64,000 bases of DNA, taken from positions 250,248 to 314,247 of the forward strand of contig CAVVKN010000023.1 in assembly GCA_963748825.1 (NCBI GenBank), written 5' to 3'. Shown piece by piece: positions 46,958-63,046 of this stretch; within the stretch, counting starts at the first letter, position 1; every line of letters begins with the position of its first letter. The notes under the pieces are model-generated. The model saw only the letters and a list, made by a program, of their open reading frames with translations. It did no database searches and had not been told where the DNA came from. A program made the translations under genes and the position numbers. Origin of the DNA: Methanotrichaceae archaeon. Lineage in GTDB: Archaea > Halobacteriota > Methanosarcinia > Methanotrichales > Methanotrichaceae.

Positions 46958-48634
46958 ATGAATATAAATGCTGCAATCATCGACCAACGACTCAATTCAG
47001 TATGCGATGAGATTCGTGACCGCGCAAAGGATGAGTTAAAGATCGCTGATGAGGAGAGACTTCGATCTCTGGCCTTCGTCCATCTCTCAGTAAAGACAAT
47101 GCTGGATCTGTCCGATGATGAGGCTTTTGATTGCCTCGTAGAGGGCGGGCAAGACTTCGGGGTGGACGCGATCCACTTCACCGAAGAACGAGATGGTGAG
47201 TTTACCGTTAGCCTTTTTCAGGGAAAATACAGTCGCAAACTCGAAGCGGCATCGAATTATCCAGAAAACGGTATCAAGGCACTTATCAATGCCATTCGCC
47301 ACCTATTTGATCCTTCCTCAAGACTCGAAAACTTAAATCCACGACTCGGCGCAAAGGTGGAGGAAATTCGGTCTATGATTCGGGAAGGAAACATTCCCCA
47401 AGTTCGGGCATTAGCCTGTAATAACGGTCTGTCGTGGAACGAGGGCGCAGAACAGACAATATCACAGGAGGGATTTGGAAATCAAGTCACTTGGGAGCAT
47501 GTTAACCACGATCGACTCGTGATGATCTTCCAAAGGGCAAAGCCGGTCAACGATGCCTTGCAGCTTACTGGGGCTGCTATCATCGAGGATCTCCATTTCA
47601 GCCGCGTGCTTGTGGCAAGGATAGCCGCAACTGAAGTGGCTGCATTGATACAACGGCATGGTGAACGCCTACTCGAGCGAAATATTCGCCGTTATCTTGG
47701 ACTACAAGGTAATCGGGTCAATGAGGCGATGAGAGATACATTGAGAGGAGAAGAGAATAGCAACTTCTATTTTTATAATAACGGAATTACCTTGACCTGT
47801 GATAAATTTACCTACAATGCACTGCAAAACAGGGATTATCAAGTAAGGGTGGAGAACCTCCAGATCATCAACGGCGGTCAGACATGCATAACCATATTTA
47901 AAACATTGCAGGAGATGCCTGAGTCCAAAATCCCGGTGAATGCCTACTTGCTTGTACGTCTCTACCAGCTTCCAAGTGACAACGAAGATCTTGTCAAAAG
48001 AATCACCTTTGCCACCAATAGTCAAAATCCAGTGGATCTCCGCGACCTGCGGGCCAATGACGATAGACAGCGTAGGCTTGAGACCGACATTAACCAGTTA
48101 GGATTCACCTATAGACGAAAACGCACAGATTCATCCCTGAAACAAAAGGATATCACCACAGGCGTGGCGGCAGAAGCTATTCTATCGGTCTGGAGGAAGA
48201 GGCCCCATCAGGCAAAGTTCCTTACTCGAGAGCACTTCGGAAAGCTGTACGACCTAATCTTCTCAAACGACCTCAACGGGGCCCAGGTAATCATTTCAAC
48301 ATTAATCTATCGGCATGCAGAGAATAAAAGAAAAAGACCGCCAGAAGGTGCGCCGCAGTTCATCCGCTATGCATCATGCTTCATATCTATGCAGATGGGT
48401 AAATATCTGCTAAAGGATTTAGGATGTGATATCTCTGGTTTGACGCACCAGAACTATGAAACAGCGAGGCTGCTTGTTGAGCAGAAAGGTGATGAGTATT
48501 TTAGGCAAGCAGTCTCTGATGTAGCGAATGCACTTAAGATGCTATATAGAGAATCAGATATATCCCTTCAGCAACTTTCTGCCACATTTCGGCGTAGTGA
48601 TCTTATTGAAAAATTGGACCACTTGGATGGCTAG
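46958..48634 (+). CDS. AIPR family (abortive infection phage resistance) protein
   Basis: D-x-GVDA, FQGKY, NIR-x-YLG, FYFYNNGIT, QIINGGQT, TNSQN. Confidence 0.93.
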   Translation: MNINAAIIDQRLNSVCDEIRDRAKDELKIADEERLRSLAFVHLSVKTMLDLSDDEAFDCLVEGGQDFGVDAIHFTEERDGEFTVSLFQGKYSRKLEAASNYPENGIKALINAIRHLFDPSSRLENLNPRLGAKVEEIRSMIREGNIPQVRALACNNGLSWNEGAEQTISQEGFGNQVTWEHVNHDRLVMIFQRAKPVNDALQLTGAAIIEDLHFSRVLVARIAATEVAALIQRHGERLLERNIRRYLGLQGNRVNEAMRDTLRGEENSNFYFYNNGITLTCDKFTYNALQNRDYQVRVENLQIINGGQTCITIFKTLQEMPESKIPVNAYLLVRLYQLPSDNEDLVKRITFATNSQNPVDLRDLRANDDRQRRLETDINQLGFTYRRKRTDSSLKQKDITTGVAAEAILSVWRKRPHQAKFLTREHFGKLYDLIFSNDLNGAQVIISTLIYRHAENKRKRPPEGAPQFIRYASCFISMQMGKYLLKDLGCDISGLTHQNYETARLLVEQKGDEYFRQAVSDVANALKMLYRESDISLQQLSATFRRSDLIEKLDHLDG

Positions 48635-48672
48635 AATGGCAGATATCCAATCGACACCGATGCTACCTTGCC

Positions 48673-49446
48673 TTAGAGCCAGGGCATAGCTACCCCAACC
48701 AGATACAGGATCGCGATTATCACCGGCTGATGGACCAGATAGATGGCCAGCGAGTTTCGGCCCAGGAATGCCAGGGCTCTCACAAAAGGTGACCGAGAAA
48801 GATCAGGCAGATCCATCTTGCGCCGGTAGTCGGGATAGAGGAGGCTGCCCAGGCCAATCCCCGCCAGAATCACCCCGAACCAGGGAAACACAGGAAAGTA
48901 GTCCACCGAATAGAAATCAGGCGGCGCCAGTCCCAGCCAGAGCAGCCAGGAAAAGCCGACACCGATGTTCTGTAAATATATTCCAAATAATATAAATAGT
49001 AATCCGAAAATTATGCTTGCTCTTTGCAGCCGGAGAAATGGATAAGCCAACAGCAGCGAGAGGCCGATGAGGTGCAGCACTCCGAATACGATGAAGCCTT
49101 TGCCGATGAAGAGATAGGTGACGAGGGTTACACCCAGGGCCAGGCCCAATATCCAGGCGCTCCTCTTTAAAAGCCGCAGGCGAAACCGGTCTTCTTGCCC
49201 CAGCAGCCGGGCCCGGGAGTGGCTCAGGGTGAGGGAGAGGCCGACAAGGAGGAGAAAGAGCGAGGCGGCGGCGCGGGCCACCGCCAGCCAGAAGCCGGAA
49301 GATACTTCGATATCGTAGACGGCAAAATAGTTGAGATCAAAGACAAGATGGTAAAGGACCATCAGGACGATGGCCACGCCTCGCAGCAAGTCCACCTCCC
49401 AGAAACGGACCGTCGGGCTCTCGACCATTTCACCATCATTTTTCAT
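48673..49446 (-). CDS. DUF1624 membrane protein (heparan-alpha-glucosaminide N-acetyltransferase-like)
   Basis: D-x-LRG-x-A-x-x-LM-x-x-YH, FGVLH, DY-x-P-x-x-PW, GRNSL-x-IYL-x-HQP. Confidence 0.9.
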   Translation of the reverse strand: MKNDGEMVESPTVRFWEVDLLRGVAIVLMVLYHLVFDLNYFAVYDIEVSSGFWLAVARAAASLFLLLVGLSLTLSHSRARLLGQEDRFRLRLLKRSAWILGLALGVTLVTYLFIGKGFIVFGVLHLIGLSLLLAYPFLRLQRASIIFGLLFILFGIYLQNIGVGFSWLLWLGLAPPDFYSVDYFPVFPWFGVILAGIGLGSLLYPDYRRKMDLPDLSRSPFVRALAFLGRNSLAIYLVHQPVIIAILYLVGVAMPWL

Positions 49447-49601
49447 TCTCTTGTCCATTCGTCTCTCAAGGCTGCGCTCTCTTTTTTGGCATCCGCCAAC
49501 AGGTCTTTGCACATTCCTCTGTACTTTAATTGATCCCAATTAGTGATGGCAATATTAATATGCAATGAACCCACTAATGGGATTAGGGGAAATAGTGTTC
49601 C

Positions 49602-49862
49602 ATGCCGTTTACTAAAGTTGATGAAAAAGGCAGAATGGTTCTGCCCAATGAGATAAGGCGCAGGATGAGCATTACTGCGGGGGACGAATTTGTAATAGAT
49701 GAAGTGGGCCCGGACACGATTCTTCTCAGAAAAGTGGATGTAAAGGCCATGATCCAGGACGCAATTGAGCGCGCCAAGTCCGTGGACCTCGATAAGCTGC
49801 AGAAGGATATGGAAGAAGAGGGAAACAGAGTTGCCAGAAAGATGTACAAGGTTCTTGATTGA
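49602..49862 (+). CDS. AbrB/MazE-type antitoxin (cassette D')
   Basis: KVDEKGRMVLP-x-EIR-x-x-x-x-I-x-x-GD. Confidence 0.92.
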   Translation: MPFTKVDEKGRMVLPNEIRRRMSITAGDEFVIDEVGPDTILLRKVDVKAMIQDAIERAKSVDLDKLQKDMEEEGNRVARKMYKVLD

Positions 49863-50244
49863 CTCTAATCTTTTTATTGCAGCCGTTAAAAACGGTTGGA
49901 CAAAAAGTTCGGAGCTTCTTTCTGCTCTCTTGGGCGGCTCTGCAGAGCTGGTAGCCAACAAGGCTCTTCTTGCAGAGTATGAGAAGTATGCTCAGCAGCT
50001 CGAAGCAGAATATATATTCCTTTATCTGAAGAGCAGAATTATTTTAATTAGTGTATCTGATGAGGAGATACAGAGGTGCAAGCTATTCTTTCCCGAAAGC
50101 CAGTTTTCAGATGCGGTTCATGCAGCGACCTGCCTTCAGAGTGGAGCGCTCTTAATCACAAATGACAAGCATTTCGATAAGATCAAAGGTGATGGGCTTA
50201 TTCGAGTCTGGACAATCTCCGAGGCCATCAGGAATCTGCTTTGA
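49831..50244 (+). CDS. VapC PIN toxin (cassette D'), probable TTG start
   Basis: FLIDSN, EY, DAVHAA, LITNDKHF; overlaps the antitoxin. Confidence 0.9.
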   Translation: MPERCTRFLIDSNLFIAAVKNGWTKSSELLSALLGGSAELVANKALLAEYEKYAQQLEAEYIFLYLKSRIILISVSDEEIQRCKLFFPESQFSDAVHAATCLQSGALLITNDKHFDKIKGDGLIRVWTISEAIRNLL

Positions 50245-50292
50245 GGTTCTATGGTTTGAGCAGCAATCATGGCATTATTTTCCCTATTTTGC

Positions 50293-50489
50293 CGCTTCCT
50301 CCACAATCCCGATCTCCTCTTCCGTTAGCCCGTAAAGCCGGGCCCAGGTCGATCTGCCGGTCCGTAGCCTCGATGCGGCGGGCGAGCTGCGCCCTTGTTG
50401 TGATCGGTGCCGGCAGAGGCGAGTCTGTGTTGATCGAGCTGGACAGCCATCAGCTCCACCATGCAGTCGTGACGGGCGACGTCGGCGGG
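50293..50489 (-). repeat. RM-tail repeat R7 (degenerate, VYELY core lost)
   Basis: Homologous to 56631-56858. Confidence 0.9.
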
Positions 50490-50534
50490 ATGGGCAGATC
50501 TAGCGATATGAGACAAAAGCAACTGCAGAAAACG

Positions 50535-50795
50535 TCATATGTTGTATGCGTAATCGTGATGATCAAAGTTAACGAACCAGACTTCTGCGATAATAATCTT
50601 ATAAATGATAACCCAATTTCCGACATGGGCGCTTCGATAACCAGCAAGGTTTTGCGTAAGTGTTTCTCCAATCTCAGGATTTTGCAGGATTTCTCGAATC
50701 TTTTTAAGAGTTCTTTCTTTCAAAATGGCATTCTTTTTGGTCAGGCGCTTAAAATTTTTGTCGAAAAGAGGTGACGATTGCGGCGAATAATTCAT
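50535..50795 (-). CDS. RelE/ParE-family toxin (cassette C')
   Basis: F-x-KNFKRL...NPEIGE-x-L-x-x-NLAGYRSAHV...IIY...DHHD-x-AY. Confidence 0.88.
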   Translation of the reverse strand: MNYSPQSSPLFDKNFKRLTKKNAILKERTLKKIREILQNPEIGETLTQNLAGYRSAHVGNWVIIYKIIIAEVWFVNFDHHDYAYNI

Positions 50796-50801
50796 GTGAA
50801 T

Positions 50802-50963
50802 CTACAGGTTTGAAAGGTGCTCTATGAATTCGTCCGCATTTTTAAAGCGCTTTCCAAGACCTGCCCGAAGCTCTGCATCTCCTTTTAGGGTATTGGCTAC
50901 GATGCGTTCATCATCCTCGATAGACCTGCATTTCGTTTCTGGCTTCTTGATAGTCTTTGCCAT
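50802..50963 (-). CDS. Small antitoxin (cassette C'), 53 aa, below the ORF-track cutoff
   Basis: MAKTIKKPETKCRSIEDDERIVANTLKGDAELRAGLGKRFKNADEFIEHLSNL*, directly upstream of RelE. Confidence 0.8.
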   Translation of the reverse strand: MAKTIKKPETKCRSIEDDERIVANTLKGDAELRAGLGKRFKNADEFIEHLSNL

Positions 50964-51023
50964 CATTTAGGATCGCCAATATGTACATGGACTCTCTGCT
51001 TTAAAGACTTTCGCCGATGGCTT

Positions 51024-51253
51024 CTACCTGTTCGCTTCCTCCACAATCCCGATCTCCTCTTCCGTTAGCCCGTAAAGCTCGTACACCAGCCTGTCGATCT
51101 GCCGGTCCGTGGCCTCGATCCGGCGGGCGAGCAGCGTCCTTGTCGTGATCGGTGCCGGCAGAGGCGAGCTTGTGAAGATCGAGCATGGACTGCCACCAGC
51201 TCTACCATGCGGTCGTGGCGGGCGACATCGGCGGGGTCGGAGAAGTCGATGGT
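51024..51253 (-). repeat. RM-tail repeat R6 (full length, frameshifted, hybrid type)
   Basis: Homologous to 56631-56858. Confidence 0.92.
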
Positions 51254-51279
51254 TAGGATCGCAAAAATTTCGATTCGTT

Positions 51280-51549
51280 TCACATATCATAAGCATGATC
51301 ATGATGGTCGAAGTTTTGAAACTCGATCTTATTATCGTCAGAAAAGACTTGATAGATTATAACCCAATGCTTGGCTACATGCGCGCTCTGTTTCCCCGCT
51401 AGGTTTCCGCTTAAATTTTCGCCTATTTCTGGGTTTGCAGCAATATCCTCTACCCTTTTGAGAACTCTTTCTCTTAAAGGCGTATTCTTTTTCGTTAAGC
51501 GTTTGAAATTTCTTTGAAATTGTGGAGCAAAATCAAGATGAAATATCAT
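51280..51549 (-). CDS. RelE/ParE-family toxin (cassette B')
   Basis: FQRNFKRL...NPEIGENL-x-GNLAG-x-x-SAHV...IIY...DHHD-x-AY. Confidence 0.88.
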   Translation of the reverse strand: MIFHLDFAPQFQRNFKRLTKKNTPLRERVLKRVEDIAANPEIGENLSGNLAGKQSAHVAKHWVIIYQVFSDDNKIEFQNFDHHDHAYDM

Positions 51550-51710
51550 AGATCACGTAAATATGCGATTGCGTCCTCCACTTTATCAAATCGCTTTGCC
51601 AACCCCATTTTGCATTCCCTGGCGCCTTTTAGAGCCCCGGCAACAATGCGCTCATCTTCTTCAAGAGCCACCGTCTTCTTTGCTGGCACCTTGGATATTT
51701 TCGCTTTCAT
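51546..51710 (-). CDS. Small antitoxin (cassette B')
   Basis: 54 aa ending KRFDKVEDAIAYL; ATGA overlap with the toxin. Confidence 0.8.
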   Translation of the reverse strand: MKAKISKVPAKKTVALEEDERIVAGALKGARECKMGLAKRFDKVEDAIAYLRDL

Positions 51711-51767
51711 CTCTAATCGCCAGACTGAACATGGCCTCAATCCTTTAAAGACTTTCGCCGATGGCTT

Positions 51768-51972
51768 CTACCTGTTCGCTTCCTCCACAATCCTGATCTC
51801 CTCTTCCGTTAGCCCGTAGAGCTCGTACACCAGCCTGTCGATCTGCCGGTCGGTGGCCTCGATGCGGCGGGCGAGCAGCGCCCTTGTCGTGATCGGTGCC
51901 GGCAGAGGCGAGTCTGTGTTGATCGAGCGGGACCGCCACCAGCTCCACCATGCGGTCGTGGCGGGCGGCATC
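51768..51972 (-). repeat. RM-tail repeat R5
   Basis: Encodes LLARRIEATDRQIDRLVYELYGLTEEEIRIVEEANR*. Confidence 0.92.
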
Positions 51973-52019
51973 TTGTCGGCTGCAGATTCAATAATTGATC
52001 TGAAGCCTCATCAGTTTTA

Positions 52020-52500
52020 TCAAATACCTATCGTTTCCCGAGCTTCTCTGAGCGAGACAATTTTAAGCCGAAAGCCATCTGGAACCTGATAGTGCCGAAG
52101 AATTTTGTCGGTCGTAATAAGAAAGTCCATGCCATAAGCTAACGAGTATCCAAGATGGGTTCGATCTGTAGGCTGCATTCGACCTTGGCATTCTTCAACG
52201 AGATTCCAGCAAATTTCAGCCGCTTCATCGCTCGGCAGAAGAAAACGGATCTCCAGTTTTCTCCACAGCTCGATCAAAGCCGAGATCTGCTCCAGCTTCT
52301 GCGGATCTTTGCTTTCCTTCTCGGCGGTTATGGTTTTGAAGACTGTTTCAGCCAGAACGGAGAACGGAACACCGTAGTTCAAGATCAGGATGATTATCGA
52401 TGTGCTCCAGAAGGCTGGAGGCCAGACGCACATTTCTATCTCTTTTATCCTGGCCGACAGAAAAGAAGAAAATATCAGAATCAACTGCTACATGTTTCAT
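52020..52500 (-). pseudogene. PIN toxin with a 1-nt frameshift (cassette A')
   Basis: MKHVAVDSDIF in one frame and VPFSVLAE...DRTHL...LITTD in another; 481 nt. Confidence 0.8.
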
Positions 52501-52655
52501 TTCTTATGGAAAGCGTTCTTGATTCGTTCCCTGGTTGCAAGAGCTTCCTCTTTGGTTACTGCCCAAACTATATTGCCGTTGATATCCACGGCGCCGCCAT
52601 AGGGAAGCTGGTTTTTCTCCGAATCGTATCTTTGGCCGACTACTTCTTCAGTCAT
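52497..52655 (-). CDS. Small putative antitoxin (cassette A')
   Basis: 52 aa, GAGG Shine-Dalgarno-like sequence, ATGA overlap with the PIN gene. Confidence 0.7.
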   Translation of the reverse strand: MTEEVVGQRYDSEKNQLPYGGAVDINGNIVWAVTKEEALATRERIKNAFHKK

Positions 52656-52713
52656 TCTTTTCCTCAATTCGTGTTTTGCTTTTTGAAAAGAAATAGTTTT
52701 TCGTCGGATTCTT

Positions 52714-52862
52714 TTACCTGCTCGCTTCCTCCACAATCCCGATCTCCTCTTCCGTTAGCCCGTAAAGCTCGGTACACCAGCCTGTCGATCTGCCAGGTCG
52801 GTGGCCTCGATCTGGCGGGCGAGCAGCGTCTTGTCGTGATCGGTGCCGAGATGGAGCTTGTG
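52714..52862 (-). repeat. RM-tail repeat R4 (partial, at the duplication junction)
   Basis: Homologous to 56631-56780 with several single-base indels. Confidence 0.9.
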
Positions 52863-53365
52863 GCAGCAGGAAAAGCCGACACGATGTTCTGTAAATATAT
52901 TCCAAATAATATAAATAGTAATCCGAAAATTATGCTTGCTCTTTGCAGCCGGAGAAATGGATAAGCCAACAGCAGCGAGAGGCCGATGAGGTGCAGCACT
53001 CCGAATACGATGAAGCCTTTGCCGATGAAGAGATAGGTGACGAGGGTTACACCCAGGGCCAGGCCCAATATCCAGGCGCTCCTCTTTAAAAGCCGCAGGC
53101 GAAACCGGTCTTCTTGCCCCAGCAGCCGGGCCCGGGAGTGGCTCAGAGTGAGAGAGAGGCCGACAAGGAGGAGGAAGAGCGAGGCGGCGGCGCGGGCCAC
53201 CGCCAGCCAGAAGCCGGAGGAGACATCGATATCGTAGACTGCAAAATAGTTGAGATCGAAGACCAGATGGTAGAGGACCATGAGGACGAATGGCCACGCC
53301 TCGCAGCAAGTCCACCTCCCAGAAACGGACCGTCGGGCTCTCGACCATTTCACCATCATTTTTCA
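52863..53365 (-). pseudogene. Truncated, frameshifted copy of the DUF1624 gene
   Basis: 5' two-thirds of 48673-49446 fused to repeat R4. Confidence 0.85.
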
Positions 53366-53520
53366 TTCTCTTGTCCATTCGTCTCTCAAGGCTGCGCTCT
53401 CTTTTTTGGCATCCGCCAACAGGTCTTTGCACATTCCTCTGTACTTTAATTGATCCCAATTAGTATGGCAATATTAATATGCAATGAACCCACTAATGGG
53501 ATTAGGGGAAATAGTGTTCC

Positions 53521-53781
53521 ATGCCGTTTACTAAAGTTGATGAAAAAGGCAGAATGGTTCTGCCCAATGAGATAAGGCGCAGGATGAGCATTACTGCGGG
53601 GGACGAATTTGTAATAGATGAAGTGGGCCCGGACACGATTCTTCTCAGAAAAGTGGATGTAAAGGCCATGATCCAGGACGCAATTGAGCGCGCCAAGTCC
53701 GTGGACCTCGATAAGCTGCAGAAGGATATGGAAGAAGAGGGAAACAGAGTTGCCAGAAAGATGTACAAGGTTCTTGATTGA
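53521..53781 (+). CDS. AbrB/MazE-type antitoxin (cassette D)
   Basis: Identical protein to 49602-49862. Confidence 0.92.
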   Translation: MPFTKVDEKGRMVLPNEIRRRMSITAGDEFVIDEVGPDTILLRKVDVKAMIQDAIERAKSVDLDKLQKDMEEEGNRVARKMYKVLD

Positions 53782-54163
53782 CTCTAATCTTTTTATTGCA
53801 GCCGTTAAAAACGGTTGGACAAAAAGTTCGGAGCTTCTTTCTGCTCTCTTGGGCGGCTCTGCAGAGCTGGTAGCCAACAAGGCTCTTCTTGCAAAGTATG
53901 AGAAGTATGCTCAGCAGCTCGAAGCAGAATATATATTCCTTTATCTGAAGAGCAGAATTATTTTAATTAGTGTATCTGATGAGGAGATACAGAGGTGCAA
54001 GCTATTCTTTCCCGAAAGCCAGTTTTCAGATGCGGTTCATGCAGCGACCTGCCTTCAGAGTGGAGCGCTCTTAATCACAAATGACAAGCATTTCGATAAG
54101 ATCAAAGGTGATGGGCTTATTCGAGTCTGGACAATCTCCGAGGCCATCAGGAATCTGCTTTGA
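53750..54163 (+). CDS. VapC PIN toxin (cassette D), E-to-K change at a conserved acidic position
   Basis: As 49831-50244 but LLAKY instead of LLAEY. Confidence 0.88.
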   Translation: MPERCTRFLIDSNLFIAAVKNGWTKSSELLSALLGGSAELVANKALLAKYEKYAQQLEAEYIFLYLKSRIILISVSDEEIQRCKLFFPESQFSDAVHAATCLQSGALLITNDKHFDKIKGDGLIRVWTISEAIRNLL

Positions 54164-54211
54164 GGTTCTATGGTTTGAGCAGCAATCATGGCATTATTTT
54201 CCCTATTTTGC

Positions 54212-54408
54212 CGCTTCCTCCACAATCCCGATCTCCTCTTCCGTTAGCCCGTAAAGCCGGGCCCAGGTCGATCTGCCGGTCCGTAGCCTCGATGCGGCGG
54301 GCGAGCTGCGCCCTTGTTGTGATCGGTGCCGGCAGAGGCGAGTCTGTGTTGATCGAGCTGGACAGCCATCAGCTCCACCATGCAGTCGTGACGGGCGACG
54401 TCGGCGGG
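54212..54408 (-). repeat. RM-tail repeat R3 (degenerate, VYELY core lost)
   Basis: Homologous to 56631-56858. Confidence 0.9.
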
Positions 54409-54453
54409 ATTGGCAGATCTAGCGATATGAGACAAAAGCAACTGCAGAAAACG

Positions 54454-54714
54454 TCATATGTTGTATGCGTAATCGTGATGATCAAAGTTAACGAACCAGA
54501 CTTCTGCGACAATAATCTTATAAATGATAACCCAATTTCCGACATGGGCGCTTCGATAACCAGCAAGGTTTTGCGTAAGTGTTTCTCCAATCTCAGGATT
54601 TTGCAGGATTTCTCGAATCTTTTTAAGAGTTCTTTCTTTCAAAATGGCATTCTTTTTGGTCAGGCGCTTAAAATTTTTGTCGAAAAGAGGTGACGATTGC
54701 GGCGAATAATTCAT
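54454..54714 (-). CDS. RelE/ParE-family toxin (cassette C)
   Basis: As 50535-50795 with one I/V difference. Confidence 0.88.
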   Translation of the reverse strand: MNYSPQSSPLFDKNFKRLTKKNAILKERTLKKIREILQNPEIGETLTQNLAGYRSAHVGNWVIIYKIIVAEVWFVNFDHHDYAYNI

Positions 54715-54720
54715 GTGAAT

Positions 54721-54882
54721 CTACAGGTTTGAAAGGTGCTCTATGAATTCGTCCGCATTTTTAAAGCGCTTTCCAAGACCTGCCCGAAGCTCTGCATCTC
54801 CTTTTAGGGTATTGGCTACGATGCGTTCATCATCCTCGATAGACCTGCATTTCGTTTCTGGCTTCTTGATAGTCTTTGCCAT
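54721..54882 (-). CDS. Small antitoxin (cassette C)
   Basis: 53 aa, paralogous to the cassette B antitoxin (E-x-DERIVA-x-x-LKG...GL-x-KRF). Confidence 0.8.
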   Translation of the reverse strand: MAKTIKKPETKCRSIEDDERIVANTLKGDAELRAGLGKRFKNADEFIEHLSNL

Positions 54883-54942
54883 CCTTTAGGATCGCCAATA
54901 TGTACATGGACACTCTGCTTTAAAGACTTTCGCCGATGGCTT

Positions 54943-55200
54943 CTACCTGTTCGCTTCCTCCACAATCTCGATCTCCTCTTCCGTTAGCCCGTAAAGCTCG
55001 TAGACCAGCCTGTCGATCTGCCGGTCCGTGGCCTCGATACGGCGGGCGAGCAGCGTCTTGTCGTGATCGGTGCCGGCAGATGCAAGCTTGTGAAGATCGA
55101 GCATGGACTGCACCAGTTCCACCATGCGGTCGTGGCGGGCGACGTCGGCGGGGTCGGAGAAGTCGATGGTTAGGATCGCAAAAATTTCGATTCGTTTCAC
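54943..55200 (-). CDS. Stand-alone copy of the RM C-terminal helical domain (repeat R2, 54943-55170, intact frame)
   Basis: 85 aa ORF: MKRIEIFAIL followed by 75 aa nearly identical to the RM C-terminus; ATGA overlap with the RelE stop. Confidence 0.6.
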   Translation of the reverse strand: MKRIEIFAILTIDFSDPADVARHDRMVELVQSMLDLHKLASAGTDHDKTLLARRIEATDRQIDRLVYELYGLTEEEIEIVEEANR

Positions 55201-55466
55201 ATATCATAAGCATGATCATGATGGTCGAAGTTTTGAAACTCGATCTTATTATCGTCAGAAAAGACTTGATAGATTATAACCCAATGCTTGGCTACATGCG
55301 CGCTCTGTTTCCCCGCTAGGTTTCCGCTTAAATTTTCGCCTATTTCTGGGTTTGCAGCAATATCCTCTACCCTTTTGAGAACTCTTTCTCTTAAAGGCGT
55401 ATTCTTTTTCGTTAAGCGTTTGAAATTTCTTTGAAATTGTGGAGCAAAATCAAGATGAAATATCAT
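55197..55466 (-). CDS. RelE/ParE-family toxin (cassette B)
   Basis: Identical protein to 51280-51549. Confidence 0.88.
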   Translation of the reverse strand: MIFHLDFAPQFQRNFKRLTKKNTPLRERVLKRVEDIAANPEIGENLSGNLAGKQSAHVAKHWVIIYQVFSDDNKIEFQNFDHHDHAYDM

Positions 55467-55627
55467 AGATCACGTAAATATGCGATTGCGTCCTCCACTT
55501 TATCAAATCGCTTTGCCAACCCCATTTTGCATTCCCTGGCGCCTTTTAGAGCCCCGGCAACAATGCGCTCATCTTCTTCAAGAGCCACCGTCTTCTTTGC
55601 TGGCACCTTGGATATTTTCGCTTTCAT
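55463..55627 (-). CDS. Small antitoxin (cassette B)
   Basis: Identical to 51546-51710. Confidence 0.8.
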   Translation of the reverse strand: MKAKISKVPAKKTVALEEDERIVAGALKGARECKMGLAKRFDKVEDAIAYLRDL

Positions 55628-55684
55628 CTCTAATCGCCAGACTGAACATGGCCTCAATCCTTTAAAGACTTTCGCCGATGGCTT

Positions 55685-55889
55685 CTACCTGTTCGCTTCC
55701 TCCACAATCCTGATCTCCTCTTCCGTTAGCCCGTAGAGCTCGTACACCAGCCTGTCGATCTGCCGGTCGGTGGCCTCGATGCGGCGGGCGAGCAGCGCCC
55801 TTGTCGTGATCGGTGCCGGCAGAGGCGAGTCTGTGTTGATCGAGCGGGACCGCCACCAGCTCCACCATACGGTCGTGGCGGGCGGCATC
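55685..55889 (-). repeat. RM-tail repeat R1
   Basis: Homologous to 56631-56858; 5' part degenerate. Confidence 0.92.
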
Positions 55890-55936
55890 TTGTCGGCTGC
55901 AGATTCAATAATTGATCTGAAGCCTCATCAGTTTTA

Positions 55937-56417
55937 TCAAATACCTATCGTTTCCCGAGCTTCTCTGAGCGAGACAATTTTAAGCCGAAAGCCATCTGGA
56001 ACCTGATAGTGCCGAAGAATTTTGTCGGTCGTAATAAGAAAGTCCATGCCATAAGCTAACGAGTATCCAAGATGGGTTCTATCTGTTGGCTGCATTCGAC
56101 CTTGGCACTCTTCAACGAGATTCCAGCAAATCTCAGCCGCTTCATCGCTCGGCAGAAGAAAATGGATCTCCAGTTTTCTCCACAGCTCGATCAAAGCCGA
56201 GATCTGCTCCAGCTTCTGCGGATCTTTGCTTTCCTTCTCAGTGGTTATGGTTTTGAAGACTGTTTCAGCCAGAACGGAGAACGGAACACCGTAGTTCAAG
56301 ATCAGGATGATTATCGATGTGCTCCAGAAGACTGGAGGCCAGACGCACGTTTCTATCTCTTTTATCCTGGCCGACAGAAAAGAAGAAAATATCAGAATCA
56401 ACTGCTACAAGTTTCAT
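55937..56417 (-). pseudogene. PIN toxin with a 1-nt frameshift (cassette A)
   Basis: MKLVAVDSDIF... then a frame change near 56290; same lesion as in copy A'. Confidence 0.8.
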
Positions 56418-56572
56418 TTCTTATGGAAAGCTTTCTTGATTCGTTCCCTGGTTGCAAGAGCTTCCTCTTTGGTTACTGCCCAAACTATATTGCCGTTGAT
56501 ATCCACGGCGCCGCCATAGGGAAGCTGGTTTTTCTCCGAATCGTATCTTTGGCCGACTACGTCTTCAGTCAT
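56414..56572 (-). CDS. Small putative antitoxin (cassette A)
   Basis: MTEDVVGQRY...KAFHKK*, ATGA overlap with the PIN gene. Confidence 0.7.
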   Translation of the reverse strand: MTEDVVGQRYDSEKNQLPYGGAVDINGNIVWAVTKEEALATRERIKKAFHKK

Positions 56573-56630
56573 TCTTTTCCTCAATTCGTGTTTTGCTTTT
56601 TGAAAAGAAATAGTTTTTCGTCGGATTCTT

Positions 56631-59600
56631 TTACCTGCTCGCTTCCTCCACAATCCCGATCTCCTCTTCCGTTAGCCCGTAAAGCTCGTACACCAGCCTG
56701 TCGATCTGCCGGTCCGTGGCCTCGATCCGGCGGGCGAGCAGCGTCTTGTCGTGATCGGTGCCTGTTGATGCGAGCTTGTGAAGATCGAGCATGGACTGCA
56801 CCAGCTCCACCATGCGGTCGTGGCGGGCGACATCGGCGGGGTCGGAGAAGTCGATGGTACGAATGGGGAGCAGTTCGATATATTGGCGATTCAATGCAAT
56901 ATATCCTCCACGGAAAGGTGTGCTAATCGACACCAAATAAGCACTCAATAAATGGGAATTTAATAGCCCTAGCAGATATAGATAAGATATTTCTACCTTC
57001 TCTAATAAAGTTATACCGTATCCTCCACCACCTCCACCACCGCTACCGACAAAGTAATAAATTCCATCTAAATCCGCGGCAAAACAACTACCCGTTGCAA
57101 TCGAAGGAACCAGCAATTTTACGGCGTTAAATCGAGTATGGTTTTTCTTATACACGTAACCATACCATAATTGTCCCATTTGACCTTTATTCCTCTTGGA
57201 TAGCCGTTCATAATTCTCTTCCAGATAAGCCCATGTAAGAGGGTATAATGACATATACTCATTCGCATTGATAATTACAGATTTATTATTAATATTATTG
57301 TATGGAAATATCAAACGTTTATTGGCATTCGCCAAATTATATCTGCGAATGTTTAGCGATCCTTTTAGAAAAGGCTTTAAGTGACTATTTTCGAGCCAAT
57401 GTTTTTTCCCTGTAGATTTCGATTCACAAAGTACTTTATCTCCATCACATTTTATTTCTTCAAGAATGAACACATCGTCGGCGTCCGTCTGCAAACCGAC
57501 GAATAGATGTGCTACATCGCCTAATTTCTCTCGGCTTTTTGCCAACCGCTCGAATATTTCGGCACTACGGCCAATAGAAAAATTCCATTCTGTATTTGTT
57601 AAATTTTTGGTGGCTACAGTTCCAGAAGTTGCTTTGCCATCAAAACGCCATCTTCTAAGGTCATTTACCTTTACGAGCGCGAAGCATTCTGATCGAGTGC
57701 TGCTTAAAAATAACAAACACGTGTAGGTTGTTGCACCCTCGAATACTTGCTCCCCTCCGAAATGTACAATTTCAGAAATCTGTCCGCTTTCTGCAAGAAG
57801 AAAACGCAAGCTTTCTCCATATTGAGCATTGAAAAACTTGTGCGGCAAGATAAATCCTAGTCTTCCATGCTCGTTCAGCAGATCAAGTCCTCTTTCCACA
57901 AAGACTACGTAAATATCGTAGTTGCCCTTGCTTGCGGAAACATACTTCTGCTTGTAATGCTCCACTTCCAGAGGAGCCCATTCCTTCATAGTCTGAATGC
58001 GAATGTAAGGCGGATTGCCTATCACCGCATCAAACCCGCCCCGCTCGAAGATCTCCGGGAACTCCGTCTTCCACTCGAAGGCGTTGATCCTCTGCACTTC
58101 TTCTGCACTCAGGTTCTTATGGTCATCATAATAATCGTAGCCTATGAGCGAGTTTCCGCACTTGATATTGCTGCCCAGATCCGGCAGCGCCCGCTCTTTA
58201 AAGTAGCGCAGCAGGCTGCTGATGCTCTCCTCTGTCTCTCCCTCCAGGACCTTCAGCAAGAGCGAGAGCTTGGTCACCTCCACCGCCTGCGGGTCGATGT
58301 CCACCCCATAAATGTTGCTCTGCAAGATGCGCTTTCTCTCCGTGGTGGTCAGGCGCCATTCGTTGCCGTTGGCCTTGAAGATGGGGAGGGATGCCTGGGC
58401 GGCGCGGGCGTGGATCTTCCTGGCCCGCCGGTCGGCTCGCTGCTCGGGCGCTGCCGGCAGGAGCCGCAGCACTTCGGGCGAGGCGACCGAGTTGTTTTTC
58501 TCCAGCAGGGGACCCAGGTTGGCCTTGTACCATTCCATGTGCCAGTCCAGCAGGAACTGGTAGGCTCCGATGAGAAACGAGCCCGAGCCGCAGGCGGGAT
58601 CGAGGATACGAAGCTGTGCCGCTTTTGCGGGAGTATTGCCTTCCAAAAGCTTTCCCACGGTGTTCTTGACGATGTACTCCACGATGTAGGGAGGCGTGTA
58701 GTAGACTCCGCCCGCTTTTCGCACCTCAGGCTTGTCCTCCACTATCGCTTTGTGGCCTTCTTCCAGCCGGATGACCTTGCCCAAAAATTGCTCATAAACC
58801 TGGCCTAAAATCTCAGCCGGGATCTCGGAGAAGACATAAGGGCTGTCCGGGAAGTAAAGGTCCTGGATGATCTCTTTTAAAGTTGCATCATCGATAACCA
58901 GGGCAGTCGTCAGGCTGTCGGGCGACTCCTTTCTCTCCCGCTCCTCCTGGAAGTGGAAGATGCCGGAGTTGTAACGCTCGTCTGCCTCTGCAAAGAGCTG
59001 GAGCAGCCGGGCGTAGACCCCTTCCTCCTTGAGCAGTGCCTTGAGCCGTCCGTACTCCTCAATGGCCCGATCCTCACAAATGCGCAAAAATAGGAGCCGG
59101 TCAATTGTCCTCTGCACGGAAAAGTTCAAATCCCGCTGGCTGAGGGCCGGATTTCGCAGGGCAAGGTTCCTGGCCAGGGCCTCGCGCCAGAGCGAGATCT
59201 CCTCCAGAAGGGCTGCGTCCACCCGCTTGATGCCGCGCTTTTCCGGTATCGACTCGATAAACCTTTCCAGTGATCCGCCCAGCACCGCTTCCTTGGAAAA
59301 GAGGGCAGCAATCTCATCCCAGCGCTCTACGTACTGGTCGTACTGCAGGTAGAGAAGGCGGCCTTTTCCGGGTTTGTCCGTCTTGCTGGGCTCTGCCCGG
59401 CAATCGTAGACCGCAAACTCCTCGAAGTCCGTGAGAATTGAGACGGCCAGGCTCGCCGACCAGGCGTATCTGCGCAGTTGGAAACGCAGGATAAACACCA
59501 CCCTCGATGTTGATGGAGGGCTTCTTGGTCTCCACAAAGAACTTGCGGCTTTTTCCTAATCGAAAGCTGTAATCCGGATTCTTGATGCTCTCCTCCATCC

Positions 59601-59799
59601 GGATGGACTCTTCCAGCTTCACCTCTTTGCTGTCGCTCGATAGTCCCTGCCGGTTGTGCACATCCCAGCCCAATGCCGCAAAGAAGGGATTTACAAACTC
59701 ATCCCTCAGCTCCGTCTCGTTGTACTGGCTGCAGCGATACTCGTTTATCCTGCGGCCAAAGCCCTCTACAAGTTCAACTATCTCACGTGGTGCAGACAA
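56631..59799 (-). CDS. Type IIG (Eco57I-like) restriction-modification enzyme, one frameshift near 59480
   Basis: N-terminal nuclease (NE-x-x-x-R-x-EF, PDY...VETKK), GVYYTP, motif I ILDPACGSGSFL, motif IV GNPPY, TaqI-C-like TRD, C-terminal IDRLVYELYGL helix. Confidence 0.93.
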
Positions 59800-59989
59800 T
59801 ACCCGATCTCCTCTTGCAACACTTCATAGAAAGAGGACAGGAAAAAGGTTTTGCCATGCAGAGCAAACTAAAATGCAATAACCAAAATAGTGCAAAATGA
59901 TTTAAAAAGTAAAGCTATTAATAATAAAAGAATAGATAGAAAGCCTTACGACCATCTATCGTATCTTTATTATATTTCACTGCGAATGT

Positions 59990-60184
59990 TTACTGTTTCT
60001 CTACTTTGTCAGCCTTGGGGCCTTTCTCGCCCTCAATGACCTCGAAGCTTACCTTGTCACCCTCATCGATAGTGACACCGGGCTTCAGGCCGGTTACGTG
60101 TACAAAATAGTCCTTACCATCGTCGCCTGCTATGAATCCAAAGCTCTTGACTCTGTTGAAAAACTTAACTGTTCCATTTACCAT
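59990..60184 (-). CDS. Cold-shock domain protein
   Basis: GTVKFFN-x-x-KSFGFI, DYFVH, V-x-F, KGPKA. Confidence 0.93.
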   Translation of the reverse strand: MVNGTVKFFNRVKSFGFIAGDDGKDYFVHVTGLKPGVTIDEGDKVSFEVIEGEKGPKADKVEKQ

Positions 60185-60382
60185 TTTTGATTCCTCTGAT
60201 TGGGTTAGCATGGGTACCACGATCTTCCTGTACTTATAGTTTCTGGCTGATCGCTTGGGCCACACCATTGGCCGCCCTAGAACAATCGTATGCTGTCGTA
60301 TTTTAGGGAAATTCTTTTATAGAAGATCAAATACTGTGAACCTGAGAATTCGCAAATAAGCAATTACTGGAGGATTATCAAA

Positions 60383-62074
60383 ATGGCAGGAATGGGCGGA
60401 TCGCCAATTATCATTTTAAGGGACACCCGCAGAGAGTCGGGAAAAGATGCTATCTCGAATAACATCATGGCTGCCCGCGCCGTGGCCAATGCGGTGAGGA
60501 GCACCCTGGGCCCCAAAGGCATGGACAAATTGCTGGTGGACTCCATTGGAGACGTAACCATCACCAATGATGGCGTGACTATTTTAAAAGAGATGGATGT
60601 ACAGCACCCCGCGGCTAAGATGCTTATCGAGGCCGCCAAAACCCAGGATAAGGAGGTAGGCGACGGCACCACCACCGTGGCCGTCCTGGCTGGCGAGCTG
60701 CTCAAGAAAGCCGAGGTCCTCTTAGACCAGAAGGTTCACCCCACCATGATTGTGCAGGGGTACAGATTGGCTGCGGAAAAGGCCATACAGATTGTGAAAT
60801 CCATCTCCATTGATGCCTCGGAAACCGATCGCGCCCTCCTGGAGAGGATCGCCGAGACGGCCATGACCGGAAAGCTGGCCGAGTCCCCGGACAGCAAGAT
60901 GGCCAGTTATGCCGTCGACCTGGTCCTCAACGCCATTGAGACCTACAACGGCAAGAAAAGCTTTGACATGGATCGGGTCAATGTGGAAAAGAAGGTCGGC
61001 GAGAGCACCATGGATTCACAGATCATTGAAGGCATAGCGATCGATAAGGAGATCGTCCACCAGAACATGCCCCGCAAGGTTGTGAATGCCAAAATTGCTC
61101 TTCTCTCTACGGCCATCGAATCCAAGGAAACCGAGACCAAGACCGAGCTGCAAATCACCTCTTCCACTCAGTTCCAGCAATTCATGGATCATGAGAAGCA
61201 GAGGATAAAAGAGGCTGCGGATAAAGTGATCGCCAGCGGCGCCACAGTGGTCTTCTGCCAGAAGGGCATCGACGATCTGGCCCAGCATCATCTGGCCAAT
61301 GCCGGAATTCTGGCTCTGCGTCGCGTCATCAAGAAGGACATGGACAAGCTGGCCAAAGCTACGGGAGCTAACATCGTCACGGGTCTGGATGAGCTCGGCC
61401 CCAGCGATCTGGGCACAGCCGCCCTGGTAGAGGAGAAGCGCATGGGGAGCGGCATCATGACCTTTGTCACCGGCACCAAGAACCATTCTGCAACCCTTCT
61501 GCTGCGAGGCGGCACTCAGCAGGTCTTAAACGGCCTGGAGAGAGCATTAGATGATGCCCTTCACGCCGTGGCAGATGTGGTGGAGGACGGCAAGATGGTC
61601 GCAGGTGGCGGAGCTCCTGAGATCGAGCTTTCCCTGCGCCTGCGTGAGTATGCATCCACTTTAAAGGGCCGCGAGCAACTGGCAGTCACCAAGTTCGCCG
61701 AGGCCATGGAGATCGTGCCAAAGACCCTGGCAGAGAACGCCGGCTTTGATGCCATCGACAAGGCTATCGAACTGAAGAACAAGCACGAGACGAACAAGAA
61801 CATGGGCCTTAACGCCTACACCGGCGATATCCAGGACATGTTGAAACTGGGGGTTGTCGAGCCACTACGCGTCAAGATTCAGGCCATTTTGTCGGCAACT
61901 GATGCCGCCTGCCTCATCCTGCGCATCGATGATGTTCTTGCTTCAACCAAGACGCCGCCACCGCGTGGTGCAGGTGGAATGCCACCAGGAATGGGAGGCA
62001 TGGGCGGAATGGGTGGTATGGGAATGCCGCCGGGCATGGGTGGAATGGGCGGCATGCCGCCAGGGATGTTCTAG
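60383..62074 (+). CDS. Thermosome (group II chaperonin) subunit
   Basis: [13 protein letters not shown]-x-TIL, GDGTTT, GGGA-x-E, LRIDD and GGM tail. Confidence 0.97.
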
Positions 62075-62254: not shown

Positions 62255-63046
62255 ATGGGAATGGAGGGGTACTTGATATGGCTGATCTTTCTAGCGTTGG
62301 CGATATTCTCAGTAAGCATCATCCAGCTCCAGGAAGGCCGGAGCCGGAGACTGCAAGAAGACTGCCGGCAATTGCAGCAAAACATGCAGCTCTGGCAGGA
62401 TAAACTGCGGAAGAAGGAGAGCCACATTGATCATCTCCAGCGCGATTTTGCCCAATTGCTCAAGTGGAAAGAACGCGCCTCTGAACTGGAAGAGGAGCTT
62501 AAGAGAGTCAAACAGACGCCGGATTATGCCTCCGCCCAAAGGCTGCAGTTCTTGGAAGATTACATCGCAAACTCTCAAAAAAATCCGCACGCTATTTTCC
62601 TGGGCACCTTCTCTTCCCTGGGACGGCATGCATTCGAGGACGAACTGCGCCGCATGCTGGGGGATGCCAAATTCGAGATCGTAATAGTGTCACCCTGGAT
62701 AAAAAGGCAGACATGGAACAGGATGAAAGGGCCACTACGAAAGTTCTCCCGAGGGGGAGGAAAGCTGAGGGTATTTATGCGAGGAAGCGAGTCGGACTAC
62801 TCATTAGGCCTGAGTGACAATTTGCAGGAGGAGATCTCTGACCTGAGTGGGGAGGTTGTGCTGATAGCCCAGCTTCATGCCAAGATCTACATGGTGGACC
62901 GAAGGGAAGCGATCGTCACTTCTGCCAACCTTACCAAAGGCGGTACAGAGGCCAACTACGAGGGCGGAATCTGGGTGAACGATCCGGTTGTGTTGCACGA
63001 AATATGCGAGTTTGTAGACGACATCTATCAGATCGGAGCAAGATGA
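62255..63046 (+). CDS. Membrane-anchored coiled-coil protein with a single PLD (HKD) domain
   Basis: N-terminal transmembrane helix, coiled coil, IVSPWI, LHAKIYMVD...TSANLT...N-x-E. Confidence 0.88.
   Translation: MGMEGYLIWLIFLALAIFSVSIIQLQEGRSRRLQEDCRQLQQNMQLWQDKLRKKESHIDHLQRDFAQLLKWKERASELEEELKRVKQTPDYASAQRLQFLEDYIANSQKNPHAIFLGTFSSLGRHAFEDELRRMLGDAKFEIVIVSPWIKRQTWNRMKGPLRKFSRGGGKLRVFMRGSESDYSLGLSDNLQEEISDLSGEVVLIAQLHAKIYMVDRREAIVTSANLTKGGTEANYEGGIWVNDPVVLHEICEFVDDIYQIGAR

Follow-up and report, generated by a model that had tools for sequence, protein, structure and literature searches.

The locus described here is an array of toxin–antitoxin (TA) modules that lies behind a type IIG restriction–modification (RM) gene of a Methanothrix archaeon (family Methanotrichaceae), and in which the modules are set apart from one another by recurring copies of an RM gene's 3′ end, hereafter called tails. 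It forms part of a stretch of 64,000 nucleotides (nt), the window, taken from contig CAVVKN010000023.1 (C23) of the GenBank assembly GCA_963748825.1 (positions 250,248 to 314,247, forward strand); coordinates given below without a contig or locus name are positions in the window. Arrays of the same build, with variable content and in some cases with no cassette at all, recur across Methanothrix and in other archaea and bacteria.

The RM gene and the array in the window

The RM gene lies on the minus strand and is divided between two frames, a main frame of 968 amino acids (aa; 56631–59537) that holds the methylase, the target-recognition domain (TRD) and the tail, and an N-terminal part in another frame (59314–59799), with a +1 frameshift near 59485. 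The protein matches the Pfam families Eco57I (4.9e-52), N6_Mtase (1.6e-18), MmeI_Mtase and TaqI_C (2.2e-7), and its N-terminus gives a weak match to HSDR_N (3.3e-5, marginally under the family cut-off). By these matches it is predicted to be an Eco57I-like enzyme combining restriction, modification and specificity in a single chain, with a nuclease-type domain, a gamma-type N6-adenine methylase and a TaqI_C-type TRD. In the N-terminal frame 97 of 106 residues match residues 11–116 of an intact 1067-aa orthologue, which places the frameshift after about codon 106, and the base at 59485 is missing from contigs of related populations in 4 of 4 sequencing runs; the break marks either a true pseudogene or an assembly error. 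When the gene is compared with its orthologues at two related loci (L027 and L031), its 5′ 1.8 kb are ~90% identical and its tail 86–89%, and because the TRD of ~1.1 kb between these two parts cannot be aligned, the tail forms the downstream boundary of TRD replacement. The gene is a mosaic of a conserved nuclease/methylase part, a swappable TRD and a conserved C-terminal tail of ~75 codons, the last of which is the final block of DNA homology common to different RM alleles.

The tail is present in the window in eight direct copies, all on the minus strand. When the 301-nt RM tail was searched by blastn through all 2.88 Mb of the assembly, eight matches came up on the window's contig (86–100% identity, 183–301 nt) and elsewhere only five weak ones, 31–146 nt long, and this contrast excludes a chance origin of the repeats. 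Reading downstream from the RM gene, and with approximate coordinates, the head copy R0 (56631–56858) is the gene's own 3′ tail; R1 (55685–55889; 89% identity over 209 nt) is truncated at its 5′ side and frameshifted; R2 (54943–55191; 95% over 231 nt) is nearly full-length and has an open frame; R3 (54212–54402) carries an internal deletion and has a 3′ end like the resident end that precedes a 73-aa gene at the related locus L022; R4 (52711–52862) is cut at the junction of a duplication; and R5 (51765–51972), R6 (51021–51253) and R7 (50293–50489) follow. Searches and coordinates thus bear out the original prediction, made from the letters of the window, that an RM tail recurs here as direct repeats delimiting TA cassettes.

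That prediction had also placed exactly one two-gene module in each interval from R0 to R3 and a further one behind R3, and the open reading frames and Pfam matches agree. Cassette A, on the minus strand as are B and C, consists of a small upstream gene of 52 aa (56414–56572), with orthologues of 52–63 aa at six loci (cluster CL6), and a PIN toxin gene broken into two frames (55937–56417), whose orthologue at locus L021 (12053–12550; PIN 6.4e-7) is intact. Cassette B comprises a small upstream gene (55463–55657) and an 89-aa toxin of ParE/RelE type (55197–55466; ParE_toxin 8.5e-7), and cassette C a small upstream gene of 53 aa (54721–54882; cluster CL2, nine loci) and an 86-aa toxin of the same type (54454–54714; ParE_toxin 2.8e-8). 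Cassette D (53521–54163), a MazE/AbrB antitoxin gene (53521–53781; MazE_antitoxin 1.9e-9) with a PIN/VapC toxin gene (53684–54163; PIN 5.3e-7), is on the plus strand, and it runs opposite to the RM gene at all four loci that carry it (cluster CL10). With a small gene directly 5′ of a toxin of known family, the modules are classed as predicted type II TA systems, in which the upstream genes of A, B and C are putative antitoxins belonging to no Pfam family.

No tail follows cassette D in the window; it adjoins what is left, at the C-terminal end, of a resident 73-aa RelB-like gene (49443–49541, minus strand; RelB-like 1.8e-4), which is intact in L022 and likewise a remnant in L027. The distal border of the locus is formed by the flanking membrane gene HGSNAT_cat (48673–49539, minus strand; 1.1e-75), which is syntenic in L022, L025 and L027. 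The block was also expected to repeat once, as R4 to R7. A second block is indeed there, but it is one unit of a single 3.9-kb segmental tandem duplication and not a product of serial cassette integration. The distal unit (48942–52862), with R4, A′, R5, B′, R6, C′, R7 and D′ (49602–50244), and the RM-proximal unit (52863–56780) are 98.7% identical; 41 mismatches and 10 gap openings separate them. Their junction joins the middle of R0 to the middle of the HGSNAT-type gene, with at most a base or two of shared sequence, and leaves a duplicated 5′ fragment of that gene (52863–53459, minus strand) fused to R4. In both units (55937–56417 and 52020–52500) the PIN toxin gene of cassette A is frameshifted at one identical place, so the break is older than the duplication; its 52-aa partner is intact. 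The duplication, with its breakpoint in a tail, made the truncated tail R4 and so illustrates how a new tail copy can originate.

The surroundings hold further genes of defence type: an AIPR-family protein gene (46958–48634, plus strand; 5.3e-53) just past the membrane gene, and a PLD-like (PLDc_2) gene (62255–63046, plus strand) past the thermosome gene. Elsewhere in the same genome there is a third locus, on contig C22 (74459–81000), with a fragmented RM-like gene of another subfamily, the stop of whose tail overlaps the start of a PIN-E-type gene; a dCTP-deaminase-like gene comes next, as it does in L030. An isolated, frameshifted tail stands amid TA genes on contig C11 (~50985–51129).

Recurrence in Methanothrix and beyond

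In a first draw, tail DNA was detected in 19 of 24 congeneric genomes and in none of 16 genomes of other genera, and in all it is present in 47 of 59 Methanothrix genomes, the window's own included (E<=1e-8). An nhmmer profile of the tail, run over 37 Methanothrix loci and the window, gave 123 tail copies and 85 same-strand intervals between them, among which 17 measure 406–456 nt, 31 measure 598–768 nt and five, of 156–181 nt, are gene-less spacers. The recurring cargo comprises about ten types, namely PIN-A, RelE/ParE, PIN_2, PIN-E, the inverted AbrB–VapC pair, HEPN with a partner, MazF, Mrr, GNAT and HicA-like proteins, and 10 of the 11 recurrent cassette types are co-oriented with the RM gene, AbrB–VapC being the exception. 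Their order differs from locus to locus. Behind the RM gene, L040 has RelE, PIN-E with Mrr, HEPN, PIN-A, PIN_2 and RelE; L042 has MazF with Mrr, HEPN, RelE and PIN-A; L024 has RelE, PIN-A, PIN_2, D and GNAT; L029 has PIN-A and PIN_2; L047 has PIN-E and RelE; and L052 has MazF, while L027 and L036 have the RM gene with a single tail and are empty. A variable array attached to the tail in such a way that the RM frame stays intact had been proposed for the window, and this is supported by the lack of a fixed order among relatives and by the existence of an empty site; an open frame of more than 300 aa continues into the head tail in 21 of 38 sources.

There are two chromosomal RM loci, one between cold-shock/thermosome genes and the HGSNAT gene (the window, L022, L025 and L027), the other beside hydantoinase and deacetylase genes (L021, L024 and L028), and identical cassette types are present at both. 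The structure is seen in independent assemblies, including a genome assembled as one contig (G020) in which the RM body is gone at both loci and the arrays are kept; at L025 only RM fragments are left. At related and distant loci alike, tail copies are clustered and linked to TA or defence cargo and not scattered, in keeping with the original prediction.

Some arrays also show erosion or insertions. At L024 (8115–8522) a deletion has removed most of a tail copy together with the C-terminus of a PIN_2 toxin, which now continues in frame into the tail's last ~20 codons. Two insertion sequence (IS) elements, the sole mobility genes seen between tails, lie inside arrays, one with a DDE_Tnp_1 transposase (L021:4957–6558), the other an IS605 OrfB/TnpB (L044:6764–7969). 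The gene-less spacers of 156–181 nt, which stand between adjacent tails at L026 (6629–6784), at L028 (5581–5753 and 6771–6938) and three times at L043, have a common sequence that also occurs behind the RM gene of L027; empty cassettes and a small element are both conceivable.

Neither Methanothrix nor TA cargo sets the limits of the phenomenon, which is much wider than both. A search with the tail peptide through 401 genomes of the phylum matched 135 genomes, mostly at the ends of ordinary RM genes of ~1000 aa, and many of these genomes have short, open-frame tail copies 1–3 kb downstream of RM genes. At 20 loci from other families the cargo is larger and includes SIR2_2, GmrSD/DUF262, AlbA_2 (with HATPase_c_4), DUF2254 membrane proteins and DUF6414, besides MNT/HepT, HicAB, an HNH protein and a weak TIR-like match. 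A broad scan, with one genome per species, found at least 531 relatives of the RM C-terminus; among the best 80 of these 531 loci, which were those examined, 18 (14 bacterial and 4 archaeal) have extra tails, as do 16 of the 57 loci with at least 3 kb of downstream sequence. All 34 extra matches are downstream of the RM gene and on its strand, in 503 kb of upstream and 508 kb of downstream sequence scanned. The bacterial carriers belong to Anaerolineae, Rubrobacteraceae, Acidobacteriota, Thermotogae, Proteobacteria, Ignavibacteriaceae and other groups, and their cargo includes VapBC-like pairs, RhuM, an AAA_15/AAA_21 ATPase, an IrrE-like helix-turn-helix (HTH) peptidase and several family-less proteins. 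The PADLOC families matched by cargo are PDC-S09, PDC-S05, HEC-06, a SIR2 family and mREase_IV; dCTP-deaminase-like proteins are also found among the cargo, and many intervals encode proteins without a Pfam family.

In its C-terminal part the RM protein of the window comes nearest to bacterial RM proteins. Its C-terminal 300 aa (TRD and tail; 56631–57530) are 65–71% identical to those of RM proteins from metagenome-assembled genomes of Anaerolineales, Rubrobacteraceae and Armatimonadetes (L078–L082), the best match being an Anaerolineales record with 71% amino-acid identity, but only 36–44% identical to seven other archaeal RM C-termini (one from Methanothrix, six from other families of the same phylum). 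These values suggest that the specificity part of the gene may have been exchanged across domains.

Tail mosaicism and the probable movement of cassettes

An empty and an occupied site form a pair in which L031 equals L027 with a PIN-A cassette and a tail added: the one tail of L027 can be aligned with either tail of L031, and the flanks match too. Cassettes are also shared between loci and species at levels above that of their surroundings. For the RelE-C cassette, identity is 97.0% to its counterpart in the genome G020 and 97.2% to that in G074; against the same two genomes the thermosome gene gives 89.9% and 90.3% and the HGSNAT gene 84.8% and 81.6%. In a further genome (G012), PIN-A and RelE-C cassettes that are 93–94% identical stand at the other RM locus.

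The tails themselves are mosaic. The 5′ border of the repeat is ragged, whereas its 3′ border falls sharply ~15 nt ahead of the stop codon. The 34 nt past the stop are 63.4% identical between copies with the same downstream cassette type as against 39.7% with different ones. For the 5′ part of the tail, identity is 69.7% where the upstream cassette type agrees and 62.4% where it does not. The tail interior is linked to neither neighbouring cassette; identity between interiors is 79.8% within an array, as against 72.4% between genomes. Truncation points are specific to the cassette, at model position ~136 after Mrr (4 of 4) and ~15 after most RelE cassettes. When extra tails are compared with the head tail of their own array, the ratio of nonsynonymous to synonymous divergence (dN/dS) is 0.37, 0.24 and 0.32 in three sets, with dS of 0.46–0.54, and because the differences are mostly synonymous the extra tails must have diverged as parts of working RM genes. 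In-place duplication of the local tail followed by neutral drift is disfavoured by the same values, and the repeats, taken originally as copies of the gene's own 3′ end, are on this evidence to be read as relics of other functional RM alleles.

On our reading, cassettes probably come, go and change places through recombination between homologous tails, general homologous recombination being the likeliest form. The unit behind the RM gene would be a module together with a 5′-truncated tail that was once part of a functional RM allele, and the founding of each new unit would require one illegitimate joint. An incoming circle or array segment, made up of post-stop sequence, module and truncated tail, would cross over with the resident tail, and because the crossover falls within homologous coding sequence, the RM frame would always be rebuilt and the older tail displaced behind the new module. 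Direct tails would also permit pop-out between any two of them, Campbell-type re-insertion of a circle of module and tail into any tail, and unequal crossing-over with incoming arrays, whence shuffling, empty spacers and tail–tail adjacencies would arise, and modules would be moved between RM loci and between species through the same homology. The agent would be the cell's general homologous recombination acting in the tails, favoured because very different tails occur in two domains, because 5′ borders vary with the cassette and interiors are reshuffled, and because no integrase or attC site was found; a spread over tails so unlike in sequence would fit a homology-driven process better than a sequence-specific one. 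The modules might be transcribed together with the RM gene and might bring the host a benefit, for example as an RM-anchored defence island, and open tail frames might in turn feed back on the RM enzyme. A stabilising effect on the RM locus, or a backup of it by abortive infection, had been proposed for the window and may be envisaged, but the RM gene and one toxin gene there are themselves frameshifted.

Several observations weigh against this account. Tails within an array are only ~75–90% identical over at most 230 nt and, save for their conserved last ~75 nt, offer a poor substrate for homologous recombination, and the sharp common 3′ border with its near-universal core would suit a trans-acting, site-specific enzyme equally. 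No excised circle, deletion product or intermediate was seen in the short contigs of related metagenome populations. The finding of no recombinase, which favours the account, covers the 25 listed of the 93 Pfam families matched by 136 representatives of cargo clusters and, singly, the 30 largest cargo proteins, two of which are IS transposases. The 37 Methanothrix loci were picked from match lists, partly for their clustered matches, and are a non-random sample. Finally, 57 of 66 extra tails outside Methanothrix (L058–L157; 29 of 33 and 28 of 33) consist of a single open frame that stops where expected, which would not be predicted of simple relics. As to the population data, the Logan contigs of related populations, in which at most 0.26 of the sampled words were present, include three joints each found on a single contig (53460>56700, 53460>54261 and 50383>55060), with short sides of 30–41 nt and 90% likeness; these might be other array states or chimeras, and no inference is drawn from them.

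A site-specific cassette system, in which units of module and tail would be moved by a recombinase encoded elsewhere (of an integron-like, Xer-like or cis-mobilizable element (CIME)-like kind) acting on a core in the last ~75 nt of the tail, is the strongest alternative, and we think it unlikely. Its appeal lies in the sharp shared 3′ border and in the core itself, which is found at reference positions ~181–255 in almost all copies with top-base frequencies of 0.80–0.92, and in the units, which are small, gene-poor, co-oriented and devoid of mobility genes as integron cassettes are. Truncated 3′ ends piling up downstream of a gene are, moreover, the classic footprint of integrases that target gene 3′ ends, and the pile-up seen here may be likened to it. 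Yet there is no integrase in or beside the arrays examined: a search of the window's own genome with PF00589 gave two weak matches (contigs C20 and C5) and none on contig C23. The tails do not fold like attC sites either, six single-strand DNA folds (three tails, both strands) having z-scores of −0.28 to +1.47 against shuffled sequence, by which a reading of the tails as attC sites is ruled out and the earlier statement that the array holds no integrase or attC is upheld. The 5′ borders vary with cassette type (~136 after Mrr, ~15 after RelE), and the interiors are reshuffled against their flanks, as would be expected of crossovers spread along a homology; furthermore, the architecture is found in bacteria and archaea on tails of RM genes whose C-terminal regions are only 35–71% identical in amino acids to that of the window, so that a recombinase co-evolving in each lineage would be demanded. 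A search for a vector among viral contigs, with a degenerate 32-nt motif of the tail, gave 0 matches.

Rather improbable, though compatible with either model of recombination, is the idea that tails are kept for a function, be it as stand-alone peptides of 55–100 aa or as regulatory or expression signals. The predominance of single-frame tails (about 55–100 aa) outside Methanothrix speaks for it, as do their frequent start at an internal methionine of the tail motif, the dN/dS of 0.24–0.37 and the position of a repeat directly upstream of each co-oriented module. In Methanothrix, however, only 29 of 74 extra tails have an intact frame, while 25 are frameshifted and 19 have their 3′ end lost or displaced; a low dN/dS is equally expected of relics of once-functional alleles; and the protein-based tblastn search by which the other tails were found is biased towards open frames. 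No Rfam family was matched in the array (47000–61000, E<=0.1), and at five related loci Rfam matched only a flanking tRNA, the gene-less spacers remaining unmatched. Recent events or gene conversion might account for the excess of intact tails, as might a bias of detection or some function of the small tail frames.

That the tails are what is left of decayed tandem RM paralogues, each once furnished with its own TA pair and then stripped of its body, seems very improbable. RM bodies do decay, as in G020 and L025, and a dN/dS below 1 implies that the tails were once functional, but five queries from the RM body (E<=1e-5) had 0 matches in 146 intervals totalling 147,288 nt, and such an origin is disfavoured by this absence of body remnants between tails. 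It would also take more than 100 independent deletions, each sparing only the last 230 nt or less, and it is at odds with truncation points that are cassette-specific and common to several genomes, with shuffled orders and one cassette at two loci, and with a pair (L027 and L031) that differs by exactly one cassette and tail. An assembly artefact, in which strain variants mis-joined in a metagenome would have created the repeats and the second block, is scarcely credible, since the structure recurs in dozens of independent assemblies, one-contig and few-contig genomes among them, the copies differ by 4–14% and in their borders, and the duplication has a unique, novel joint that an overlap of similar sequences could not produce, even if the assembly is split into 25 contigs, the window runs up to the end of its contig, many contigs of relatives break at tails and the duplicate units differ by 1.3%.

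Returning to recombination within tail homology, we propose as a tentative generalization, on which we are close to evenly divided, that these arrays make up a recombinase-free cassette system of bacteria and archaea, in which the tail of one widespread family of type IIG RM genes would serve as a portable homology arm and as a self-renewing docking site for TRDs as well as for TA and other defence modules. The shared arm would be the short conserved stretch of coding sequence with which the RM gene ends, and any module carrying a copy of it could be stacked behind the gene without damaging it. Such a system would parallel the integron but would rely on homology, building defence islands with no enzyme dedicated to the task, and the locus offers a concrete and testable route by which defence islands and TA islets lacking mobility genes may be assembled and exchanged. 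TRD swaps and the acquisition of defence cargo appear to share one recombination arm, the displaced tails of an array would be a record of past replacements of RM alleles, and reiterated tails behind type IIG RM genes provide a handle in the search for new defence genes.

Relation to known systems

The layout is real and widespread, and it seems to be a variant, so far undescribed, of cassette-array and accretion architectures: full-text searches of the literature turned up no description of cassette arrays delimited by RM tails, although supplementary tables (for example of archaeal-integron taxa and cassettes, or the RM tables of PMC12988326) might list such loci. With integrons it shares an ordered array of small, mostly promoterless-looking and co-oriented cassettes, each ended by a repeat, a content that varies among relatives, and a cargo rich in TA, restriction and acetyltransferase genes; for archaeal integrons, figures in a preprint put TA proteins at 10.5%, methylation/restriction at 8.3% and acetyltransferases at 4.4% of annotated cassette proteins (10.1101/2022.02.06.479319). 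It differs from them in that no intI was found here or adjoins the array, in that the repeats are 50–230-nt copies of a coding 3′ end instead of attC hairpins and vary by lineage with the host RM gene, and in that the array hangs on the regenerated stop codon of a functional gene.

Tandem accretion of integrative and cis-mobilizable elements at the 3′ end of a gene, of which the Dehalococcoides islands integrated at the tmRNA gene ssrA provide one described case (PMC3146451), resembles the present arrays in that direct repeats of the target's 3′ end delimit the inserts, the target is intact or regenerated, and truncated copies pile up downstream on the same strand. The inserts here, in contrast, measure 0.4–1.9 kb and carry no integrase, none having been found nearby, and the repeat is long, variable on its 5′ side and derived from a conserved tail of type IIG RM genes.

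Small TA or defence units are also known from Acinetobacter plasmids, whose pdif modules are flanked by 28-bp Xer sites. The defence and TA islets described in PMC13617665 are likewise small units without mobility genes and with rapid turnover, for which that account proposes recombination at flanking homology. The flanks it describes are two different core genes, whereas in the present arrays one portable arm is copied in every unit, and units can therefore be stacked serially at a single gene end.

Reassortment of TRDs, termed DOMO, offers a further parallel, in that variable modules bounded by conserved repeats of RM genes are exchanged, duplicated or lost and pass between loci which have those repeats in common; in the arrays discussed here the TRD is bounded downstream by the tail, and cassettes are common to the first and the second RM locus. 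Whether DOMO proceeds by site-specific or by homologous recombination is a choice that its authors left undecided (Furuta et al. 2011, PMC3077401). Its modules are TRDs inside the reading frame, while here the repeat is reiterated past the stop and the modules are independent TA and defence genes. In concept, DOMO is the nearest relative of these arrays, in which its principle is carried past the stop codon to independent defence modules.

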